Positions 6,203 through 48,359 of a DNA stretch of 64,000 nucleotides are shown piece after piece. Location: the NCBI GenBank assembly GCA_963718445.1, contig CAVQZI010000001.1:1706522-1770521 (forward strand), given 5' to 3'. A program made the translations under genes and the position numbers. The notes under the pieces are model-generated. The model saw nothing but the letters and a program-made list of their open reading frames with translations. It was not told where the DNA came from and made no database searches. Source of the DNA: an uncultured Acidobacteriaceae bacterium. GTDB taxonomy: Bacteria > Acidobacteriota > Terriglobia > Terriglobales > Acidobacteriaceae. Each line of letters opens with the position of its first letter. Within the stretch, counting starts at the first letter, position 1.

Positions 6203-6503
6203 GAAAGCCAACTCCTTATGAGCGCGGATGAATATAGGTAAACATTTCATTATCGAATTCGCCGATATCGCAGGTCAAGGAAACGGGCCTGCAGAATGTG
6301 TGCGGCGAAGCATTCAGCCCAACTCACGTGCAACCGCTGCAAAGCGGCGAGCCCTGGGCGACTCTGGGGGGCGGAACGAGATTCAGAATAGCTTTTGCGT
6401 GGGCGAACTGTTTGTGATTTTCGTCACAGTGTCTCATGACGATATGACGCCCGTGGCTAAGGCATCTGAGGGCGGTTTCGACAGGGAATCGCTTATAGTG
6501 AGT

Positions 6504-7556
6504 TCGTCCATGCGGATTCGCGAAAACGTGCCTTTAGCCCCCCTGACCACGCTTGGCGTAGGCGGCCGCGCGCGATATTTTGTCGATGCCGGGACAGAAG
6601 CCGAAGTCTTGGAAGCGGTCGAACTCGCGCGCTCGCGCGATCTGCCGCTATTCGTCCTCGGCGGAGGCAGCAATATCGTTGTAGCGGATGCAGGTTTCTC
6701 AGGTTTGGTGCTGAAGGTTGGCATCACGGATTCCTCGCACTTCTCCGTAGAAAATAAGACGATATTCCAGGCTGGTGCAGGGTACGAATGGGACGGACTG
6801 GTGGAACAGACAGTTCAGGCAGAGTGCGCCGGGTTGGAGTGCCTCAGCGGAATTCCCGGCACAGTGGGCGGAACCCCGGTTCAAAACGTGGGAGCCTACG
6901 GGCAGGAGGTATCACAAACCATCGAAGAGGTCCGCGCTCTTGATTTGCGGTCACTCGAGATCAAGACGCTGACGAATGCTGAGTGCGGATTTGGCTATCG
7001 CTCCAGCATCTTCAACACCAGCGAGCGCGGACGCTACATCGTCCTGGAGGTTTCGTTTGCTGTGCGTCCGGAGGGCACGCCGACTCTGCACTATCCCGAT
7101 CTGCAGAAGTTCTTTGCCGGACGCATGGAAGAACCAAAGCTCAGCGACGTGCGAGCGGCGGTCCGCGAAATCCGTCATCGCAAGGCAATGCTGATCGTCC
7201 CCGGCGAGGACGACGCGCACAGCGTCGGATCGTTCTTTAGAAATCCGATCGTGCCGAGTGCGTTTGCTGACGAGTTGTGGGCGCGATTAAGCGCTCGCGG
7301 CTTCGAGTTGCCGATTTATCCCGCAGCCAACGGCTTTCGGAAACTCGCCGCGGCCTGGCTGGTGGAACACGCCGGATTCGCTAAGGGCTACACCCGGGGG
7401 AGGGCCGGTATCTCGCGCAAGCACGCCTTAGCGATCGTGAATCGCGGAGGCGCCAGCGCGGCGGAGATCGTTGCGTTGAAAGACGAGATCCAGTCACGCG
7501 TTTTCGGCGAGTTCGGGATCCAACTTGAGCCGGAGCCGGTGTTCGTGGGATTTTGA
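6504..7556 (+). CDS. murB: UDP-N-acetylenolpyruvoylglucosamine reductase
   Basis: MRIRENVPLAPLTTLGVGG ... VLGGGSNIVV and a GSFFRNP C-terminal region. Alternative start at 6444; the track start at 6228 overlaps the sdhC upstream region and is unlikely. Confidence 0.9.
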   Translation, partial: SSMRIRENVPLAPLTTLGVGGRARYFVDAGTEAEVLEAVELARSRDLPLFVLGGGSNIVVADAGFSGLVLKVGITDSSHFSVENKTIFQAGAGYEWDGLVEQTVQAECAGLECLSGIPGTVGGTPVQNVGAYGQEVSQTIEEVRALDLRSLEIKTLTNAECGFGYRSSIFNTSERGRYIVLEVSFAVRPEGTPTLHYPDLQKFFAGRMEEPKLSDVRAAVREIRHRKAMLIVPGEDDAHSVGSFFRNPIVPSAFADELWARLSARGFELPIYPAANGFRKLAAAWLVEHAGFAKGYTRGRAGISRKHALAIVNRGGASAAEIVALKDEIQSRVFGEFGIQLEPEPVFVGF

Positions 7557-7598
7557 AAGACCGCCGTTCGCTAGTCGCTCTTCGCTTTTCGCTAACTG

Positions 7599-8945
7599 CT
7601 AGTTGCTAATTGCTGCCTTTTTTTGCCACTCGGTCGCCTGCTCGTAAGCATTCGCGAGACGCAAGCACATCGAATCCCCGCCCGGCCGGCTGGAGATCTG
7701 CATTCCAACCGGCAGCCCGCCGCTCGTGAATCCGCAAGGCACCGAAATGGTCGGCCAGAACAGCACGCTAAAGGGTGCCGTGTTGCGCAAAAGATACTTC
7801 ACTTCGAATGGCCGCACATCTGGGACGGCCAGCTCCTCTACACCCGCTAGTTTCGGCGCAGGTACCGGGACCGTGGGCGTGATGATCAAATCCATTTCCT
7901 CGAAGATGCGTGCAGCGTTCGTGCGAAACGCCACCAACCGGCGCTGCTCGCGAATGTAGTTCGTCGCGCTGATTCCGGCACAGTTCTTCAGCCGGAACAG
8001 CGTGCGCGGATCGTATAGCTCGGGAGTATTGGCGATCATGGCCTCATGGAATTCATAGATTTCCGCATCGAACATGGTCCGGAATCCTTCGGCTGGCACA
8101 TCGACCTCGTGCACCTGGGAAACCATCCTGGTCAGCGTTTTCAACGCCCCCTCCAGGCAGGTGCTCACCTCGGGGTCGAGGTCGTCGAAGAACTTCTTCC
8201 GGGCAATCCCAATCTTTAATGGCAAGACGGGGTCCTCAAGCGATTGCACGAACCCGGAACCGCCGCTAAACACATCCATCAAGATCGCGGTATCGCGAAC
8301 CGTGCGCGTCATCGGCCCCACCGTATCAAACGATGTGGACAGCGGAACGATGCCTTCGCAACTCAGTAGGCCGGCACTGGGCCGATGCCCCACAAGTCCG
8401 CACAACGCGGAGGGACATCGGATTGACCCGGAGGTGTCAGACCCCATCGCTACCACACACAGACCCGCCGCCACCGCCGCCCCCGAGCCCGATGAAGATC
8501 CGCCCGTGATTCTTTTCACGTTCCAGGGATTCCTCGTCGGCCCGAATGCGCTCACCACACCGCTCATCCCGAAGGCGAACTCGTGCATATTCAACTTCCC
8601 CAGAATGACAGCACCCGCGTCTTTTAATCGACGGACAATTTCTGCATCTCGCGACGGCACACGGTTCCGATACTGATTGCTGGCCGCCGTCGTTCGCACC
8701 CCGGCCGTATCGAAGAGGTCTTTCAACCCTATGGGAACGCCGTGCAGTGGCCCGCGACATCTTCCCGCGTTTATCTCGGCCTCTGCACGCCTCGCCTGCT
8801 CGAGAGCAAGATCGGCCGTAACAGTAATGAAAGCATTGACCACCGGATTGAGACGCTCGATTCCAGCCAGGCACGCGCGCGTGAGTTCAACCGGAGAAAG
8901 GCGGCGAGTGCGAATCTGTTCCGCCGCTTCCGTAAGTGTCAGCAT
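7599..8945 (-). CDS. Amidase-signature family amidohydrolase (GatA-like)
   Basis: GGSSSGSGAAVAAG amidase signature and a KDLFD motif. Confidence 0.85.
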   Translation of the reverse strand: MLTLTEAAEQIRTRRLSPVELTRACLAGIERLNPVVNAFITVTADLALEQARRAEAEINAGRCRGPLHGVPIGLKDLFDTAGVRTTAASNQYRNRVPSRDAEIVRRLKDAGAVILGKLNMHEFAFGMSGVVSAFGPTRNPWNVKRITGGSSSGSGAAVAAGLCVVAMGSDTSGSIRCPSALCGLVGHRPSAGLLSCEGIVPLSTSFDTVGPMTRTVRDTAILMDVFSGGSGFVQSLEDPVLPLKIGIARKKFFDDLDPEVSTCLEGALKTLTRMVSQVHEVDVPAEGFRTMFDAEIYEFHEAMIANTPELYDPRTLFRLKNCAGISATNYIREQRRLVAFRTNAARIFEEMDLIITPTVPVPAPKLAGVEELAVPDVRPFEVKYLLRNTAPFSVLFWPTISVPCGFTSGGLPVGMQISSRPGGDSMCLRLANAYEQATEWQKKAAISN

Positions 8946-9675: not shown

Positions 9676-11526
9676 ATGGCCACACCCGGCGACTTTGCGC
9701 ACACCATCAAGGAGCAGGCTGATATCGTCCGCATCGTGGGCGAGTACGTCAAGCTGCGCAAAAGCGGAGCACAGAATTTTCAGGGCTTGTGTCCATTTCA
9801 TCAGGAGAAGACGGCGTCGTTCTCGGTCCATGCGACGCGTCAGTTCTTTCACTGTTTCGGCTGCGGAGCTTCGGGCGATGTCTTTGCGTTCGTACAGAAG
9901 CTCGAGAACATTACCTTCCCTGAGGCTGTACGACTCGTAGCAGAGAAGCTCAACATTGCGCTGCCCAAGATGACTTACTCCTCGCCCGAGGAGGCCCGTG
10001 CCGGCAAACTTCGTGGCGGGCTCATCGATGTGCACGAGCGGGCCTGCGCTTTTTTCCAGGATCAACTGCGCCGCCCGGAGGCCGCACACGCCCGAGAGTA
10101 TCTTGCCTCCCGTGGACTCACGCCAGAGCACATTGCCGAGTTTCGCATCGGCTATGCGCCAGATTCGGGCTTTCTGCTTCGCGACGCGCTCCGCAAGCAG
10201 TTCGACGACGAAGAGCTTCTGCGCGAGTCGGGGCTGTTTAGTTGGAAGGCCGCTGATCCCTCCCCCCTGGCCCCTAACCCCCAGCCCCTGCCCTCCGCCT
10301 ACTCCCGCTTCCGCAATCGCGTGATGTTCCCGATCTGCAATGAGTCAGGCAAAGTAATCGCCTTCACCGGACGCACGCTCTCTGCCGACGAGAAAGCTGG
10401 GCCCAAGTATTTGAACTCGCCGGAGACGCCGATCTACTCCAAGTCGCGCGTCCTCTTCAACCTGGGCAAAGCCAAAGACGCCATTCGCAAGCTCGATTAC
10501 TCCATCCTGGTGGAGGGTCAGATGGATTGCATCTCCGTGTACAACGCCGGTTTTCACAATGTGATCGCCAGCTCCGGAACTGCGTTCACTGAGCCGCAGG
10601 CGCGACTGCTGGCGCGATTCAACAAGAACATCGTCGTCAATTTCGATCCTGACACCGCTGGGGCTGCGGCGGCCGAGCGTTCCCTCGCGCTGTTGGTGAG
10701 CGAAGACTTCCAGATCAAGATCCTGACTCTTGAGAACGGCTTTGACCCCGATCTTTACATCCGGCGCAGGGGACGGGATGCGTACGAGCTGGCGCTCCAG
10801 CAATCGCAAAAATACTTTGATTATCTAATCGAACGTTCGCGCTCCCAGTTCTCTGTGCGCACGCCCGAGGGCAAGGTGAAGGCAGTGAACTACCTGCTGC
10901 CCCATCTTCAGCGAGTCCCCAGCCGCATAGTTCGCGACGAGTGGGCCAACGAGATTTCTCACCGGCTGGGCATTGACTCGGCGGTGTTGCGCCAGGAGCT
11001 GCGACATGCCGCAGGATCGCGATCCACGTCACGCGTAAACGCGACGAGCGCTGGCGGCCTGACCGATGCTGAGCGGGTCTTGATTCGTGCCTTGTCGAGC
11101 GAGGCCCCGGCGCATGCAGCGGCTAGCAGTCGCGAAGGTCTGGACAGCGAGTTCGAGCCGGCGCGGCAGGCCCATTTCGCGCTCACCCGCGAGCGGCTGC
11201 ACGAAGGCTCCAGTGCCGAGACGCTCCTCGACGCTATCTTACTGGCGCACGAGCAGGGGCTGAACCCCATGTCCCTTCCCTTGGACGACGCGGGTAGAAG
11301 TCTCTTGGCGGCCGTACTGATGGACGAACACGAGGAACTCACGCCGGAGTTGCTGGACAGCGCGCTTCGCTCCCTCCGTAGGCGTGTTTTGCGGCGTCAA
11401 CTCGACAACCTGCAATATCAGTTGAAGGATGCCGAGCGGCGCCAAGACCCGGCTTCCGCAGCAAAGCTTTTGCAGGAGCGGGTCCGATTACGCAAGATGA
11501 TGAGCACCATCGGAGAGAGCGCCTGA
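9676..11526 (+). CDS. dnaG: DNA primase
   Basis: Zinc ribbon CPFHQEKTASFSV...FHCFGCG, RFRNRVMFPI, KYLNSPET, and a TOPRIM EGQMDCIS motif. Confidence 0.97.
   Translation: MATPGDFAHTIKEQADIVRIVGEYVKLRKSGAQNFQGLCPFHQEKTASFSVHATRQFFHCFGCGASGDVFAFVQKLENITFPEAVRLVAEKLNIALPKMTYSSPEEARAGKLRGGLIDVHERACAFFQDQLRRPEAAHAREYLASRGLTPEHIAEFRIGYAPDSGFLLRDALRKQFDDEELLRESGLFSWKAADPSPLAPNPQPLPSAYSRFRNRVMFPICNESGKVIAFTGRTLSADEKAGPKYLNSPETPIYSKSRVLFNLGKAKDAIRKLDYSILVEGQMDCISVYNAGFHNVIASSGTAFTEPQARLLARFNKNIVVNFDPDTAGAAAAERSLALLVSEDFQIKILTLENGFDPDLYIRRRGRDAYELALQQSQKYFDYLIERSRSQFSVRTPEGKVKAVNYLLPHLQRVPSRIVRDEWANEISHRLGIDSAVLRQELRHAAGSRSTSRVNATSAGGLTDAERVLIRALSSEAPAHAAASSREGLDSEFEPARQAHFALTRERLHEGSSAETLLDAILLAHEQGLNPMSLPLDDAGRSLLAAVLMDEHEELTPELLDSALRSLRRRVLRRQLDNLQYQLKDAERRQDPASAAKLLQERVRLRKMMSTIGESA
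10257..10298 (+). repeat. Heptamer-periodic C-rich tract (CCCCTGG CCCCTAA CCCCCAG CCCCTGC CCTCCGC) inside dnaG
   Basis: 7-nt periodicity read directly. Encodes DPSPLAPNPQPLPS. Confidence 0.6.
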
Positions 11527-11830: not shown

Positions 11831-13513
<1,683 letters not shown>

Positions 13514-13516
13514 AAA

Positions 13517-13548
13517 CAGTTGTCGTTTGCCGGGTGTCAGTTGTCAGT
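13517..13548 (+). repeat. GTTGTC/GTCAGTT heptamer-word element (intergenic copy)
   Basis: CAGTTGTCGTTTGCCGGGTGTCAGTTGTCAGT uses the same words as the mnmG insertions. Confidence 0.6.
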
Positions 13549-13555
13549 ATTTCAA

Positions 13556-13583
13556 GACGGGACGCGAGAGCGTCCCGTCTTTT
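13556..13583 (+). terminator. Rho-independent terminator after rpoD
   Basis: GACGGGACGC GAGA GCGTCCCGTC followed by TTTT. Confidence 0.8.
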
Positions 13584-14976: not shown

Positions 14977-15288
14977 CTATCCCGCGCGGCGTGTCTCCTG
15001 CAACACCTCGTCCAGCGCGCCCGCGAGATGTTCGGCGCGCTCGTTGTAATCGCTGGCGACGCAATCGTACTTGCGCTTGAGGACATGAAGTTCGTCGGCG
15101 ATATTTAACGCTGCCAGCACAGCCAACCGCAGAGAGTCCACTGTGGCCGCTTGCTTGGAAATCAACCGCATTTTCGTATCCACGTACTCTGCCAGCTGCG
15201 CGATGTATTCAGGATCAGAGCCCCGAAGATGATAGGTCTGATCATAGATTTCCACGCGAACCTTGCCGTTGCTGTTCGAGTCACTCAA
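14977..15288 (-). CDS. zapA: Cell division protein ZapA
   Basis: VRVEIYDQTYHLRG...VDSLRLAVLAALNIADEL pattern. TTG start at 15288 with AGGAGG 6 nt upstream; the track start is 15318. Confidence 0.8.
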   Translation of the reverse strand: MSDSNSNGKVRVEIYDQTYHLRGSDPEYIAQLAEYVDTKMRLISKQAATVDSLRLAVLAALNIADELHVLKRKYDCVASDYNERAEHLAGALDEVLQETRRAG

Positions 15289-15324
15289 GATCGGCCTCCT
15301 GATGAGATGCCAGGCCACTGGCCT

Positions 15325-15394
15325 CTCGCCCCTAATCTCTCGCCCCTAATCTCTCGCCCCTAATGTCTCGCCCCTAATGTCTCGCCCCTAATCC
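15325..15394. repeat. Tandem repeat, 5 x 14 bp (CTCGCCCCTAATNT)
   Basis: Five head-to-tail units read directly, differing only at the 13th and 14th positions of the unit (ct, ct, gt, gt, cc). Confidence 0.95.
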
Positions 15395-15405
15395 CTATCT
15401 GCTCA

Positions 15406-15687
15406 CTACGCTTCTTCCAGCGCCAACGCTTCAATTTGCCCTAACATCTTTTCCACGCGAACGCGTACCTCCTCCCGTTCGCGGCGCAACGCCACCAACT
15501 CGTGGCGCATTGTCTCCACTTCTTCCTCCCGCTCATTCAATTGTTCGCGCAGCCGCGCGACATCGCGTTCCGCCACGGCCTTGCCTTCCCGAGCGGATTT
15601 CAACAACTCAATCGTACGCAGGATTTTTTCTTCCAGGGATTTGAACTCTGTGGTGGCGGGAGCGGCTTCAACTGCATTTGCTCGCAT
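15406..15687 (-). CDS. Coiled-coil protein, ZapB-like (upstream of zapA)
   Basis: Heptad-rich sequence rich in charged Glu/Arg residues, in the conserved position before zapA. No enzymatic motif. Confidence 0.5.
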   Translation of the reverse strand: MRANAVEAAPATTEFKSLEEKILRTIELLKSAREGKAVAERDVARLREQLNEREEEVETMRHELVALRREREEVRVRVEKMLGQIEALALEEA

Positions 15688-21766: not shown

Positions 21767-21790
21767 GGCGAAGAGCGAAAAGCGAACACG
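21767..21790 (-). repeat. TCGCTCTTCGCTTTTCGC word element (infC-rpmI spacer)
   Basis: The reverse complement matches the copies at 3556 and 7572. Confidence 0.6.
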
Positions 21791-34784: not shown

Positions 34785-34804
34785 CAACCGACAACTGACA
34801 ACCG
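34785..34804 (-). repeat. GACAACY heptamer-word element (atpG-atpD spacer)
   Basis: CAACCGACAACTGACAACCG, the same words as the right arms of the mnmG insertions. Confidence 0.55.
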
Positions 34805-34806
34805 CT

Positions 34807-35844
34807 TTAAAGCGCCGCCGCCCCACTCACGATCTCAATAATCTCTTTGGTGATCGCCGCCTGCCGAACCCGGTTCATGGTCAGCGTCAGCGAGTCGATC
34901 ACGTCGTTGGCATTGTTGCTGGCCGAATCCATTGCGGTCATGCGGGCAGCGTTTTCGGCAGCCACTGACTCCAGCATCGCCTGATAAAGCTCCAGGATTA
35001 CGTATCGCGGCAAAATGCCTGCGAAGATTTGTTCCGGCGGCTGCTCGTAGATGTAATCCACATCCGGCGCCAGGAACTCCTTGGCCTTGCGCTCTTCCTC
35101 GCTCTCCGGCACCTCTTTCAGGCTAATGCCTGCCGCCCGGGCCGCCTCGCCCATGCGCTCCCTCTCCTCCACCGTGAACTCCTCCGCCAGCGCCACTTCG
35201 CGGCGGCCGATTTCCTGTACCGGCAAAATGCGTTGCGCGATAAGTCGCTGCGAGATTACCGACTTAAACTCGTTGTAGATGACGTACACCGAATCGATCT
35301 CGCCGTCCTTGTATGCCTGGATCACTCTCCCCACAATCTCAGCAACCCTGTCATATTCCAGTTTGCCGAGAAGATCGAGATGTTCGCCAACAATCTCAAT
35401 CTTGCCAGCGCGAGTCGTGCTGTCCGGAGGCCTCACCGGGTAACGGCGGCGCATGTAATCGCGGCCCTTGCGGCCAATCGCGGCGATACTGATGTTCTTG
35501 TCCTTGAAAGCTTCGATAAATTTCGCCGTCGCCTTCAGGACGTTTGAGTTGAAAGCACCTGCCAATCCGCGGTCGCCCGTAACCAGCACAAGCAACACGT
35601 TCTGCTCCGGCCGGTGCGCCAGCAGAGAATGCTTGGGCTCGCCCGTCTTCTCATCCACCAGATCGGCGCGCTCGATCAACGAGCGCAGCACCTGCGTAAT
35701 CATCAGCGCGTAAGGCCGCGACGCCAAAGCGCGCTCCTGCGCACGCCGCAACTTCGCTGCGGCCACCATCTTCATGGCTTTGGTGATCTGCCGCGTGTTC
35801 TTCACGCTGCGGATGCGCCGCCGGATGTCGCGTACGTTTGCCAT
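34807..35844 (-). CDS. atpG: F1 ATP synthase gamma subunit (about 50 aa longer than typical)
   Basis: MANVRDIRRRIRSVKNTRQITKAMKMVAAAKLRRAQ and a C-terminal RQAAITKEIIEIVSGAAAL. Confidence 0.95.
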   Translation of the reverse strand: MANVRDIRRRIRSVKNTRQITKAMKMVAAAKLRRAQERALASRPYALMITQVLRSLIERADLVDEKTGEPKHSLLAHRPEQNVLLVLVTGDRGLAGAFNSNVLKATAKFIEAFKDKNISIAAIGRKGRDYMRRRYPVRPPDSTTRAGKIEIVGEHLDLLGKLEYDRVAEIVGRVIQAYKDGEIDSVYVIYNEFKSVISQRLIAQRILPVQEIGRREVALAEEFTVEERERMGEAARAAGISLKEVPESEEERKAKEFLAPDVDYIYEQPPEQIFAGILPRYVILELYQAMLESVAAENAARMTAMDSASNNANDVIDSLTLTMNRVRQAAITKEIIEIVSGAAAL

Positions 35845-44504: not shown

Positions 44505-45824
44505 CTAACAGTTGTTCCCGCCAGGTCCGCCAAAGAAGAAGTACTCACCCCAGGTGGTATTGTTGACGAACCACGGGCCGGCCACCGTGTAGCAAGCGGG
44601 CGATGGCTGCTGCGCGGTCAGGTTCGCCCACTGCGATGCATTGGTGGTGTTCACGAAATAGATTTGCCGTTGATAGGCGGCGAACCTGTAGCCCTGGTTT
44701 GCGAAGGCGCCGCTGCCCATCAGACCCCAATTGTTCACGCCCACCGTCTCACCGCCATACCGGATGCTCTGCGCATTCTGCGTCATCTGGCCGCCGCGGA
44801 AGACCTGTCCCGGATAGTATCCAACCCATGTTCTGTTAGTGTCGTTGCCCAGCGCCAGCCACCAGTTGCCCTGGTAGAAGTACCACGTCATGGTGAAGTA
44901 ATACTGCGTGCCGCCGGAGGTGCTGTAGTTGGAGAACTTCCCGCCGAGGTGCCACTGGTTGCTGATCTGCATGAAACCTGGGCAGTCCAGGTTGTAGCAA
45001 CCGATGTTGGGGACCGTATTTCGCCTGCCGTAATTGTTCGCAGTCCAGAAGATGAACAGGCGGGAATTCTGATCGCCGTATTTGGCCGGATAGTTCTGCC
45101 AGCCGCCTTCGACGGTTTGCAGGTTGTTTCCTGTGCCCCCGGAATACCACTGCTGCGACAAGGAGAAGATCTGTCCCAGCCTGGTGTTCACGAATGGACT
45201 CCAGAGGTTCAGGGCCGAGCTGCCACCGAAATTATTGACCAACTCGACCGTGTAGGCGTACTTGTGGCTGGCTTGCGGAGCTTGGGTGCCGGGAAGCTGG
45301 CCGCTGCCGTCAGGAGCCTTGCTGAAGAAGTCATTAAGGTTCGCGAAACTGGCCACCTCGTTAAGAGTGATCCGGCGCATCGGGACGGTATTGAGCTCGC
45401 AAGTTGAGGAGTTGCCAAACTGATCGTACTGATCGCCGGGCCCTAGCTGCGGGCTGAAGGTGTCAGCGTTGGGCGCCGTGCCCAGCGCGGGAGGCGGCTG
45501 TGCCACGCTGTTCAGGCCCTGCAGCACGTACGATGGCTGCTGCTGAATGGGAACGCAGTCGTAGTACTGGCCGTAGAGGAAGAAGCTGTGGCTTACCTGT
45601 ACCGCCTGGTACAGGGTTTCAACATACTGCTGCATCTGGGAAAACGTGGCGTCATCCTGGACTGCGTACCCGGGCTGCCCGACGTATTGCGAGGCATTGG
45701 CGGATACGGTGTTGCTCATGAATTGGGTAAAGGGGACGAAGGTTTGGGCATGCAATGTTCCGGTCAGCGTGACAAGAAGCAGCACCATCACGCTCAGCAG
45801 CATTCGCTGTTTCATGGCTTTCAT
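44505..45824 (-). CDS. Secreted neprosin-like (DUF239, glutamic peptidase G3-type) protein with N-terminal pro-region
   Basis: Signal peptide. HKYAY..., FSLSQQWYSGG...TVEGGWQNYPAKYGD..RLFIFWTANNY...GCYNLDCPGFMQ...GNWWLALG...GYYPGQVF...IRYGGET...MGSGAF closely follows the plant DUF239 pattern. Confidence 0.75.
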   Translation of the reverse strand: MKAMKQRMLLSVMVLLLVTLTGTLHAQTFVPFTQFMSNTVSANASQYVGQPGYAVQDDATFSQMQQYVETLYQAVQVSHSFFLYGQYYDCVPIQQQPSYVLQGLNSVAQPPPALGTAPNADTFSPQLGPGDQYDQFGNSSTCELNTVPMRRITLNEVASFANLNDFFSKAPDGSGQLPGTQAPQASHKYAYTVELVNNFGGSSALNLWSPFVNTRLGQIFSLSQQWYSGGTGNNLQTVEGGWQNYPAKYGDQNSRLFIFWTANNYGRRNTVPNIGCYNLDCPGFMQISNQWHLGGKFSNYSTSGGTQYYFTMTWYFYQGNWWLALGNDTNRTWVGYYPGQVFRGGQMTQNAQSIRYGGETVGVNNWGLMGSGAFANQGYRFAAYQRQIYFVNTTNASQWANLTAQQPSPACYTVAGPWFVNNTTWGEYFFFGGPGGNNC

Positions 45825-46138: not shown

Positions 46139-46192
46139 GCTGAGTGTGACAGTTGGGTGCTGAGCGCTGAGTGCTTGAATGCTTATTGCTAG
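46139..46192 (+). repeat. Heptamer-periodic word tract (GCTGAGY / TGCTNNT) upstream of mnmG
   Basis: GCTGAGTGTGACAGTTGGGTGCTGAGCGCTGAGTGCTTGAATGCTTATTGCTAG. Confidence 0.5.
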
Positions 46193-48359
46193 AATCAAAT
46201 TAGCCGGGGTGTTTGGCTTGCAGTCACAATTTACAGAAACTTACGACGTTGTCGTGGTCGGTGCCGGCCATGCTGGTTGCGAGGCCGCAATGGCGGCCGC
46301 GCGCATGGGCCTGAGAACTGCACTTTACACCCTCAACGTCGATCTCATCGCGCAGATGTCGTGCAACCCGGCTGTCGGCGGAATTGCCAAAGGCCATCTT
46401 GTCCGCGAAGTCGACGCTCTCGGTGGCATCATGGGCGAAGTGACGGACGCCGTCGGTATTCAGTTTCGTCTGCTGAACACCTCGCGCGGCCCGGCGGTTT
46501 GGTCCCCGCGAGCGCAATGCGACAAGCAGCAGTATCGCCGGAAGATGCGCGAGGTGCTGGAATCCGAGCCCAACCTGCACATCAAGCAGGCGGAAGTGGC
46601 CGAACTAGTTGTCAGTTGTCAGTTGCCAGCTGTCAGTGGAATCGATGAGCAGCCACAACTGACAACCGACAACCGACAACTGATAACTGGCATTCGCCTT
46701 CGCGACGGCCGCACCGTTGGCGCGCAGGCAGTCATCATCACGACCGGGACATTCCTCAATGGCCTGATCCACTGCGGCGAACAGCAGTATCCCGCGGGCC
46801 GCAGTGGTGAACCCGCGGCCGTGCTTCTCGGCGAAGCATTAAAGAAGCTCGGCCTGCGCGGTTGCCGGCTGAAGACGGGCACGCCGCCGCGTCTTGATGG
46901 CCGCAGCATCGATTGGTCGAAGTTCACGGTGCAGCCGGGCGATGAGGATCCCACGCCCTTCAGCTTCCGCACCAGGCGCGTTGCGCATCACGACAAGCAG
47001 GTGCCGTGCTACATCGCGTTCACCACGCCAGAGACGCACCGCATCATCCGCGAGAACGTGCACCGCTCGCCCATGTACAGCGGGCAAATCCAGTCCATTG
47101 GGCCGCGCTACTGCCCTTCCATCGAGGACAAGATCGTCAAGTTCCCCGACAAGGAAGTGCATCAGCTCTTTCTTGAGCCTGAGGGGCTGAACACACACGA
47201 GATCTACGTCAATGGCATGAGCACCTCGCTGCCCATCGAGGTGCAGCTCGCGATCATCAAGTCGATTCCCGGCCTGGAGAACGCGGAGATGCTGCGCCCA
47301 GGCTACGCCATTGAGTACGACTCCATCGATCCCACCGAACTGCAACGCACGCTGGAGACGAAGAAGATCGAGCGACTTTATTTGGCCGGGCAGATCAACG
47401 GCACCAGCGGCTACGAAGAGGCAGCGTGTCAGGGGCTGATGGCCGGCATCAACGCCGCGCTGAAGATCAAGGGCCAGCCACCGCTCATCCTCGACCGTAC
47501 CGAGGCATATACCGCGATCCTGATCGACGACCTCATCAGCAAGGGAACGAACGAGCCCTATCGCATGTTCACCTCGCGCGCAGAGTTCCGCCTGCATCTG
47601 CGCATCGACAACGCCGACCGGCGCCTGACGCCGCACGGCCGCCGCGTAGGCTTGATCAGCGATGCCGCCTGGGCGGATTATCTCGCCAAGCAGGAGCGCA
47701 TGAAGGCCTTGCGCGAATTGCTGGAACGCACGCGGGTGAATGAGGCAGTTGTCGGTTGTCAGTTGCCAGTTGTCGGAGCGGATCCCAATGCAGTCAACGA
47801 TTCCAAGCACCTGTTGGAGCTATTAAGAGACGCCAAAGCCGCGGGGGTTACGCTGGCGCAGTTTCTGAAGCGTCCCGAAGTGCGAGTAGAGCAGCTTGCG
47901 CCAGTACTTGCGAGTCTGATGCCTGGTTTTTTTGTGAGAGAGGCAGACGTCAGTTGTCAGCCTTCAGCTCTCAGCCAGAGCTTACCGGTGACGCAGCCGA
48001 CAACTGACAACGGACAACTGACAACTCCGCGCTTGAGCGCGGCCGTCCGCAACGAACTGAAGTCCGTCGAGACTGAGATCAAGTACTCCGGCTACCTCGA
48101 GCAGCAGGCCAAGGCCATCGAGCGGTTGAAGAAATCCGAGCAGCGGATGATCCCCGATTGGTTCGACTACGGCAGGGTATCGGGCCTCTCGCGTGAGATG
48201 AATGAAAAGCTCACCCGCGTTCGCCCGCAAACACTGGGACAGGCCAGCCGCATTCCGGGCGTGACGCCCGCCGCGGTTTCCCTCATCAACGTGTACATCG
48301 AAATCCAGGCGCGGCAAAAGGGCGCGCCTGCACATGCCGGTGCTCACCGCGTCTCTTAG
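46179..48359 (+). CDS. mnmG: tRNA uridine-5-carboxymethylaminomethyl synthesis enzyme MnmG (GidA), about 95 aa longer than E. coli MnmG
   Basis: [76 protein letters not shown], and [11 protein letters not shown]. Start could also be 46209 or 46218. Confidence 0.97.
46607..46688 (+). repeat. Imperfect hairpin of AGTTGTC heptamer words, in-frame inside mnmG (insertion 1)
   Basis: Left arm 46607-46639 and right arm 46653-46688 are approximate reverse complements. Confidence 0.8.
47746..47776 (+). repeat. GTTGTC-word tract inside mnmG (insertion 2, single arm)
   Basis: CAGTTGTCGGTTGTCAGTTGCCAGTTGTCGG encodes [10 protein letters not shown]. Confidence 0.7.
47949..48026 (+). repeat. Heptamer-word hairpin inside mnmG (insertion 3), 78 nt
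   Basis: GTCAGTTGTCAGCCTTCAGCTCTCAGCC ... GCCGACAACTGACAACGGACAACTGACAACT. Confidence 0.75.

Follow-up and report, generated by a model that had tools for sequence, protein, structure and literature searches.

Heptamer-array palindromes lying in frame within the mnmG gene of Terriglobales bacteria

The mnmG (gidA) gene of an uncultured Acidobacteriaceae bacterium contains an in-frame palindrome, which we call element A, whose two arms are tandem arrays of a seven-nucleotide unit. The gene lies in a stretch of 64,000 nucleotides of contig CAVQZI010000001.1, referred to here as the window. Element A belongs to a dispersed family of heptamer-array palindromes of the form (GTTGTCA)n ... (TGACAAC)n. 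It is restricted to one bacterial lineage, it is edited where the repeat would otherwise bring a TGA stop codon into frame, and its counterparts are found at every stage of decay. In our view element A is probably repeat DNA that is translated and tolerated, evolving by slippage and by templating of one arm on the other, with no function of its own. The gene and the parts of element A are:

46179-48359, plus strand: mnmG (gidA) open reading frame (ORF), 726 aa, about 100 aa above the usual length by virtue of three in-frame repeat sites, from the ORF translation and PDB matches.
46607-46639, plus strand: 5' arm of element A (AGTTGTC AGTTGTC AGTTGCC AGCTGTC AGTGG), 4.4 AGTTGTC units, peptide SCQLPAVSG.
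46640-46652, plus strand: loop of element A, AATCGATGAGCAG, 13 nt, encoding part of ..GIDEQP..; probably native beta-turn codons lying outside the repeat.
46653-46688, plus strand: 3' arm of element A (CCACA ACTGACA ACCGACA ACCGACA ACTGATA ACT), five ACAACTG-type units, translated as 12 aa, with CGA where TGA would be in frame.

A preliminary description, made from the sequence of the window, had placed two inverted heptamer arms at 46607-46688. These are recovered at the same coordinates by inspection of the sequence, by Tandem Repeats Finder (46607-46637 with period 7 and 4.4 copies, and 46655-46689 with period 7 and 5.0 copies) and by a repeat search, which gives inverted arms of 31 nt that are 84% complementary. 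The array itself mixes three heptamer variants. The predicted RNA fold has an energy of -38.8 kcal/mol (z = -5.66), equalled by none of 200 shuffled sequences, and the DNA fold an energy of -20.5 kcal/mol (z = -4.27). The 18-mer GTTGTCAGTTGTCAGTTG occurs 13 times in the window when up to three mismatches are allowed, where 0.03 occurrences are expected. A comparison of element A with Rfam returned only generic microRNA-precursor hairpins, all below threshold.

The ORF encodes MnmG, matching the solved structures from Aquifex (PDB 2ZXH, E = 4e-188) and E. coli (3CES, E = 7e-186). Element A is read in frame within this ORF and, as the preliminary description had proposed, it has no counterpart in the E. 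coli protein. Both structures have a gap opposite element A, between the strands ..DLIVE(ND) and (R)VVGAV.., and the insertion point is placed between two beta-strands both by this alignment and by a strand-coil-strand pattern in a model of the window protein. That AlphaFold2 model, built on a 56-sequence alignment, has a mean predicted local distance difference test (pLDDT) score of 55.8, and the insert is a low-confidence coil scoring below 50. It was too poor for a fold search, and was used solely for the strand-coil-strand pattern near residues 140-174.

A protein identical to the window MnmG (P0001) is encoded on a 3.84-Mb metagenome contig (ENA ERZ25039506, contig_5198), and the named homologs belong to Terriglobales or 'Candidatus Korobacteraceae' (Acidobacteriota). 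Relatives outside this group were sought among 1.84 billion cluster representatives. The nearest of these have at most 56% identity and are 620-640 aa long; in the alignment they have gaps at the site of element A (site A) and at a second repeat site, C. The insert is thus specific to the lineage, the peptide is missing from distant orthologs, and the repeat has further copies, all as the preliminary description required. Most of the roughly 100 extra residues come from sites A, B and C together. Separately, six representatives from other lineages (P0210, P0214, P0251, P0252, P0260 and P0265) have 838-1169 aa and match MnmG in three or four separate stretches; they have large insertions elsewhere in the protein.

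Element A is not the only repeat in the gene. Tandem Repeats Finder reports period-7 arrays of 4.0-5.0 copies at four places within mnmG, which contains two other elements of the GTTGTCA family, B and C, that were absent from the preliminary description:

47746-47776, plus strand: element B, an array of 5'-arm type alone (AGTTGTCGGTTGTCAGTTGCCAGTTGTCGG), translated; the predicted pairing partner of element C's 3' arm.
47945-48026, plus strand: element C as a whole, with a decayed 5' arm and a clean 3' arm.
47945-47975, plus strand: decayed 5' arm of element C (AGACGTCAGTTGTCAGCCTTCAGCTCTCAGC), translated, 11 aa.
47994-48026, plus strand: 3' arm of element C (CAGCCGACAACTGACAACGGACAACTGACAACT), translated, with GGA in the in-frame TGA slot.

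The clean 3'-arm array of element C reads CCGACAACTGACAACGGACAACTGACAACT. In the repeat search element B is 90% complementary to this arm over 30 nt, and the segments 47746-47776 and 47997-48026 are predicted to pair with 220 nt of conserved coding sequence between them (minimum free energy -122.5 kcal/mol, z = -4.4), giving a predicted long-range stem in the mnmG mRNA. We considered whether B and the 3' arm of C might be one split element, and rejected this. Orthologs P0086, P0042 and P0014 have complete local hairpins at both sites, and for this reason B and C are treated as separate sites, each of which has lost one arm. Many other orthologs also keep only the 5' arm at B and only the 3' arm at C.

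A run of TGACAAC contains TGA in every reading frame from three units upward. The coding copies have a single-base change in the unit whose TGA would be in frame, which becomes CGA in element A, GGA in element C and TGG in others. Across 120 homologs, arginine fills the TGA slot of T-T-D-N-x-Q 81 times, tryptophan 12 times, glycine and glutamine three times each, and proline once. In arrays at large TGA is the commonest occupant of that slot, with 438 occurrences against 34 for the next. The lack of in-frame TGA follows in part from the choice of intact ORFs; the informative part is the minimal edit at a specific position. In over 200 independent assemblies, drawn from ENA, NCBI and JGI, the frame stays intact although the inserts vary widely in length.

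How is site A occupied in related bacteria? We examined about 200 MnmG orthologs from Terriglobales in all, and for 83 of them the DNA was compared: the window, two close relatives (L002 and L003) and 80 JGI loci from Terriglobales metagenomes. At site A most of the roughly 200 have a heptamer hairpin; the hairpins represent more than 15 heptamer families and all stages of decay. The hairpin occupies the same codon position in 120 of the 120 closest homologs and in most of the 83 DNAs. This does not sit with a recent capture of the repeat by mnmG, as first supposed; judged from these comparisons, sites A, B and C are old hot spots. The 120 closest homologs are 75-88% identical and 669-822 aa in length, and all of the length variation is confined to the three sites. 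At each site both arms switch together between lineages. The arm peptides and their heptamers include:

SCQLSVVS (5' arm): heptamer GTTGTCA.
SGQWPVAS (5' arm) and LATDHWPLAT (3' arm): heptamer CAGTGGC.
SSFEFQVSS (5' arm) and LETRNSKLET (3' arm): heptamer AGTTTCG.
GDQGSGVG (5' arm) and LTPDTWPLTP (3' arm): heptamer GGGGTCA, seen as DNA in L003.
SDQSPVAS (5' arm) and LSTIHYPLST (3' arm): heptamer AGTGGAT, the same heptamer as in an intergenic hairpin of the window at 1342-1423.

The stability of these hairpins varies greatly. The RNAfold z score at site A is below -3 in 28 of the 83 DNAs, below -2 in 42 and above -2 in 41, and many of the orthologs lack one arm. Such a range, from intact hairpins to decayed ones, does not suggest a conserved functional structure. 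The site-A region ranges from 87 to 249 nt, with a peptide that is hypervariable in sequence and length, and site A is nearly empty in L192 (VADLVIEDAGDGQRRAVGIK), L154 and L195. Many of the heptamer families lie only one or two substitutions apart (GTTGTCA, GTTGCCA, GCTGTCA, GCTCTCA, GTTCTCA and GGGGTCA), and the mixing of such near-identical families would fit a concerted drift by slippage and copying between arms. Within clades, both loops and heptamers are inherited vertically.

Other in-frame repeat types are nested at sites A and C in some orthologs (within P0005-P0120, for example P0010, P0044 and P0071, and in L128, L135, L145 and L157). Their peptides are EQQVPPLGLKPSVGMT, VILSEATEGSxVEGPL (GTCATCCTGAGCGAAGCG...), GPSTPLRSAQDD, HVGTAALGRPVERSST and PRPSQKxARTGHP. 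The PRPSQKxARTGHP repeat of P0120 lies between duplicated copies of ELIVEE, a possible target-site duplication.

The loops behave differently from the arms. Those of elements A and C differ, as do those of the three hairpins of one locus, L074, and in 49 inverted pairs over all loci the loops are anything from 2 to 117 nt long and share no motif. We looked in these 49 hairpins for a conserved loop or core of the kind found in a MITE (miniature inverted-repeat transposable element), and found none; an apparent shared GCAGCC beside the right arm of four copies most plausibly represents a degenerate unit. The site-A loop is nevertheless homologous between the window and L002, a relative with 88% identity, which points to vertical descent. 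When the near-empty L192 is aligned pairwise, as DNA, with filled sites, loops from three heptamer families fall on the native turn codons. The L192 sequence GGTGATGGC ('GDG') aligns with GGCGATGGC of L199 and GGCGACGGG of L137, and its GAAGATGCGGGTGA aligns with GAAGACGCCGGCGG of L148. The arms thus appear to lie on either side of an old beta-turn and to turn over faster than the loop. Such an arrangement, with arms around a native loop, argues against replacement by whole mobile units of the MITE type or of the type of the Rickettsia palindromic elements (RPEs).

The GTTGTCA family is present at five loci within the 64-kb window: the three elements of mnmG and two intergenic arrays. The preliminary description had noted the words of the repeat in spacers at 13517-13548 and 34785-34804; these are genuine copies, in the form of single arms, the first extending slightly further than reported:

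13517-13550, plus strand: single-arm GTTGTCA-family array, beginning 4 nt past the stop codon of ORF 11831-13513.
34785-34804, minus strand: single-arm array of GTTGTCA type on the minus strand, beginning 3 nt past the stop codon of ORF 34807-35844 (minus strand).

Both have GTTGTCA on the sense strand, 3-4 nt past a stop codon (regions 13517-13583 and 34785-34809). The first is followed by a terminator-like hairpin (GACGGGACGC...GCGTCCCGTC TTTT). Over the window as a whole there are seven strict period-7 arrays, where about 0.2 are expected.

How general is the family outside Acidobacteriota? An exact scan for GTTGTCAGTTGTCAGTTG, using one genome per species, gave at least 120 stretches. Among the matches listed are Cyanobacteria (Microcoleus, Nostoc, Calothrix, Tolypothrix, Moorena and Dolichospermum), Planctomycetota, Acidobacteriota, Bacteroidota (Hymenobacter and Flavobacteriales), Poribacteria, Latescibacterota, Chloroflexota, Chromatium okenii and others. 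Roughly 30% of arrays are accompanied by an inverted partner no more than 250 nt away, and about 70% are single arms. Where arrays are paired, the GTTGTCA arm is 5' and the TGACAAC arm 3' in every case, by 49 to 0 overall and by 30 to 0 in the independent loci of the scan. Thermodynamics does not explain this polarity, because the reverse arrangement forms the same duplex. We also considered a general rule in which the 5' arm is G/T-rich, and rejected it. Most families follow this weaker trend, with T exceeding A in 42 cases and the reverse in 11, but some do not (AGTACCC, for example), so the strict claim is limited to the GTTGTCA family. Arrays in DNA flanking mnmG match the mnmG heptamer exactly in 2 of 10 cases against 3.4% expected; with ten cases only, this sharing of heptamers within genomes is no more than suggestive.

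A GTTGTCA-type hairpin is also found in frame in an unrelated gene. At L018 3692-3780, in a Gemmataceae chromosome, it lies within a Ser/Thr kinase, between HRDLKPANIL and DFG, and once again the TGA has been edited, here to TGG. The position is the tip of a beta-hairpin between the catalytic loop and DFG, as with site A of mnmG. Of 120 planctomycete kinases (P0271-P0390), 28 have the native spacer of 10 aa from HRDLKPxN[IV]L to DFG, and in most of the others the spacer is 21-54 aa. Many of the long spacers resemble peptides of palindromic heptamer type, such as VVSGGVVSGEW..HHSPLTTHHSPLT and LQIADCRLQIA..QSAILNLQSAI; they were read from protein sequence, with L018 as the one case checked at the DNA level. 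A homolog search for a close ortholog of the L018 kinase, which would give a filled and an empty pair, yielded nothing closer than paralogs of about 50% identity, although it did bring this kinase hot spot to light.

Dispersed heptamer repeats have been known since 1990, and we know of no origin or function established for them. The STRR repeats of heterocystous cyanobacteria occur as several heptamer families per genome, with few to tens of units, mostly in intergenic direct arrays; the units are CCCCAGT (STRR1), TTGGTCA (STRR2) and CAACAGT (STRR3). The cyanobacterial STRR heptamers were reportedly described by Mazel et al. in 1990, and Vioque is said to have found an STRR in the RNase P RNA gene in 1997, lengthening an existing hairpin (helix P12). 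To our knowledge, in-frame translated palindromic STRR pairs have not been described. The elements of the window resemble the STRRs in the coexistence of heptamer families and in the ability of arrays to sit in a functional gene and extend a hairpin.

Among described elements, the nearest are direct repeats of the heptamer TAACTGA, which occur in Beggiatoaceae, Cyanobacteria, Bacteroidetes and Thiocystis (MacGregor 2015, PMC4679880). These too are dispersed tandem 7-nt units that vary in length by steps of 7 nt. TAACTGA is one base from the window unit CAACTGA, and the last unit of element A is itself TAACTG. In both families the forward strand contains TGA stops and the reverse strand can be translated (LSVISYQ for TAACTGA, LSVVSCQ here), and the taxa overlap in Cyanobacteria, Bacteroidota and Chromatiaceae. 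Nearly all TAACTGA repeats are direct and intergenic, often just upstream of start codons, with one indirect repeat reported, and the intragenic cases are at protein ends or in hypothetical ORFs (PMC4679880). In contrast, the window family forms hairpin pairs of fixed polarity, lies inside a conserved enzyme, and is present also in Acidobacteriota and Planctomycetota. Other heptamers are described in Xanthomonas and Nostoc (PMC4692102), and Geobacter metallireducens has elements of four heptanucleotides (consensus GGACCGG), within and between genes, for which a role as regulatory RNA was proposed (PMC2700814). The Geobacter unit is different, and neither hairpin pairing nor an in-frame analysis was reported for it (PMC2700814). 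In the literature searched, the coverage of which is incomplete, we found no description of heptamer repeats in Acidobacteria or Planctomycetes.

The elements of the window have the features of heptamer tandem repeats: head-to-tail 7-nt units, many dispersed loci, several families and a matching range of taxa. The unit CAACTGA (GTTGTCA) is identical to neither TAACTGA nor any of STRR1, STRR2 and STRR3, and we regard the family as related to, but richer in G+C than, the TAACTGA and STRR repeats found in Beggiatoaceae, Cyanobacteria and Bacteroidetes. The likeness to RPEs suggested in the preliminary description holds for the effect on the protein. As summarized in PMC10969869 and PMC3184786, RPEs are palindromic insertions that are in frame in housekeeping genes, translated, and placed where the fold can accommodate them; element A is likewise palindromic (z = -5.66) and in frame at an apparently fold-compatible position, though one modelled with low confidence. 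The likeness does not extend to the unit. RPEs are units of about 105-150 bp, with a family-specific sequence conserved throughout, and are described in Rickettsia only (Ogata et al. 2000; PMC10969869 and PMC3184786). Here the host is an acidobacterium of the Terriglobales, the copies agree in their heptamer arms only, the loop is apparently host sequence and the heptamer varies by lineage. The element is no better matched to a MITE: its arms could pass for terminal inverted repeats, but neither a conserved core nor target-site duplications were seen. REPINs are doublets of REP (repetitive extragenic palindromic) sequences which form hairpins and are mobilized by RAYT transposases (Bertels and Rainey 2011, PMC3116915), and each REP arm is one imperfect palindrome, 20-40 nt long and tagged with GTAG or CGTC (PMC3733652). 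Like REPINs, the window elements consist of two inverted short repeats in a larger hairpin, with fixed relative orientation, and are non-autonomous and dispersed; REPINs, however, are extragenic and have single-palindrome arms, whereas the arms here are tandem heptamers with no GTAG or CGTC tag at their ends. Thus element A is better filed with the heptamer tandem repeats (STRR and TAACTGA) than with the RPEs, despite its RPE-like effect on the protein.

How might such an element arise and persist? In the account that we favour, the arms would flank the native beta-turn of a beta-hairpin in the flavin adenine dinucleotide (FAD) domain, so that MnmG gains two extra segments around the old turn. 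The arrays would lengthen and shorten by slipped-strand mispairing. The arms would be kept alike by intrastrand (hairpin) template switching or repair, or by gene conversion from other arrays. Selection would let insertions persist in essential genes only at permissive loop tips, and there a symmetric palindrome would lengthen both beta-strands equally. Such a filter would explain why the three mnmG sites and the HRD-DFG hairpin of the kinases act as collectors of the repeats.

Several points weigh against this account. The AlphaFold model is poor, and the proposed extension of the beta-hairpin depends on alignment to solved structures. Translation of element A is deduced from the intact frame and the edited stop codons, and the copy number of the GTTGTCA family is drawn from the 64-kb window. 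The homology of loop to turn depends on short stretches (9-15 nt), and the nearly empty L192 could be a hairpin that has collapsed. The order-wide persistence of a hairpin at site A could reflect a function that has escaped detection. Moreover slippage and templating by themselves explain neither the invariant polarity nor the sharing of heptamers across phyla, and an active, enzyme-driven process may lie behind the arrays.

We think it unlikely that element A is an RPE-like or MITE-like unit of arms and loop, moved by a trans-acting transposase and inserted whole in mnmG repeatedly across lineages. Such a unit would accommodate the dispersal of the family at unlinked loci and across phyla, together with the near-identical architecture in an unrelated kinase gene of another phylum. 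The fixed orientation of the arms is as would be expected of terminal inverted repeats, the mnmG sites of some orthologs also house nested repeats of other types, and in-frame palindromic insertion is documented for RPEs (PMC10969869). Against it, copies have no loop or core in common even within one genome, and neither a target-site duplication nor a conserved or defined terminus was seen at the flanks of element A, at site A of L002 or at the L018 kinase. Whole-element replacement would not preserve a site-A loop that apparently falls on native turn codons in three heptamer families. Arm lengths vary in heptamer steps, and most arrays are single arms. No transposase was linked to the element, a point not tested genome-wide.

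It is also doubtful that the arrays are of purely local origin, in which a short ancestral quasi-palindrome at the beta-turn expanded in place and its heptamer drifted lineage by lineage with no transfer between loci. The conservation of the loop while the arms change would be expected, as would families one or two substitutions apart with variants mixed in single arrays, element A included, and vertical inheritance within clades. In addition, one clade has a CCAACGA unit to which the native sequence GGCCAACGG of L192 is similar. Yet one heptamer is common to A, B, C and the two intergenic loci of the window, and the same heptamer recurs in the many phyla of the scan and in the planctomycete kinase. 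Flanking arrays match the mnmG heptamer slightly above chance, and the 30-to-0 polarity is not predicted by drift.

We give little credence to a functional role, either for an mRNA hairpin that regulates mnmG through ribosome pausing, as an RNase target or by mRNA stability, or for a peptide that extends a working beta-hairpin of MnmG. Throughout an order-level lineage a hairpin of some sort persists at this codon position, strong RNA structures are predicted, and the intergenic copies directly follow stop codons; a post-transcriptional role has moreover been proposed for the TAACTGA repeats (MacGregor 2015, PMC4679880). However, the hairpins have decayed in about half of the orthologs, the peptide is hypervariable, and the site is nearly empty in three orthologs. 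There is no match to an Rfam family, and the insert is modelled as low-confidence coil.

A speculative scheme, to which we assign an equally low probability, is that the palindromes were left by a widespread and hitherto undescribed DNA process, in which G/T-rich heptamers were added by extension of the 3'-OH at two staggered nicks, one on each strand, around a short segment of host sequence. A parallel would be target-primed or telomerase-like synthesis that copies a short repeated template. Such a process would account for arms placed around host sequence, an unconserved loop, GTTGTCA lying 5' on both strands and the recurrence of heptamers across phyla. Finally, an assembly or sequencing artefact, suggested by the origin of the long-read contig in a metagenome assembly, is refuted by the more than 200 independent assemblies in which homologous inserts leave the frame unbroken.

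The window contains further repeats, of the AGTGGAT, TTCGCTA and CCCCTAG families and a 14-mer array. One forms a hairpin:

1342-1423, no strand assigned: AGTGGAT hairpin, with three AGTGGAT units, a 37-nt loop and three ATCCACT units, intergenic between two minus-strand genes.

This lies between the stop codon of the minus-strand ORF 1421-2743 and the ribosome-binding site of the next minus-strand gene, and its heptamer also appears as LSTIHYPLST at site C of MnmG in other lineages. In dnaG (ORF 9676-11526) there are in-frame heptamers of CCCCTxx type at 10260-10300 (CCCCTGG CCCCTAA CCCCCAG CCCCTGC), reading PSPLAPNPQPLPSA, just before the conserved RFRNRVMFPI motif; the Aquifex primase is about 10 residues shorter there. 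Five tandem 14-mers (CTCTCGCCCCTAAT, each of two heptamers) occupy 15323-15393, between ORFs 14977-15318 and 15406-15687 (both minus strand). At 7567-7614 there is a one-armed array of about seven heptamers (TTCGCTA GTCGCTC TTCGCTT TTCGCTA ACTGCTA GTTGCTA ATTGCTG), between the convergent ORFs 6228-7556 (plus) and 7599-8945 (minus) and overlapping the 3' end of the latter. A period-7 array at 21768-21788 was rejected as coding, as the surrounding ORF of 289 codons looks spurious. Upstream of mnmG, 44505-45824 (minus strand) encodes a 439-aa secreted protein of the neprosin family (PF03080), and the gene order around mnmG is unlike that of the close relatives L002 and L003.

Our analysis adds to what is known of heptamer repeats in several ways. 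They can form hairpins of fixed polarity, with arms that apparently surround host sequence rather than a core of their own; they can apparently be translated inside essential, highly conserved enzymes, where the built-in stop codon is edited out; and they recur at hot spots in mnmG and in kinases. The polarity rule constrains how heptamer repeats arise. In practical terms, the inserts inflate and fragment gene calls and marker-gene alignments, such as those of mnmG, in soil metagenomes. Should the staggered-nick process prove true, retention at beta-hairpin tips in essential genes would be a general source of length variation in bacterial proteins. If the observations listed above hold, palindromic repeat DNA in Acidobacteriota and Planctomycetota would repeatedly give rise to longer beta-hairpins and to variation in protein length, and the phenomenon known from the RPEs of Rickettsia would extend to free-living soil bacteria and to another class of repeat.

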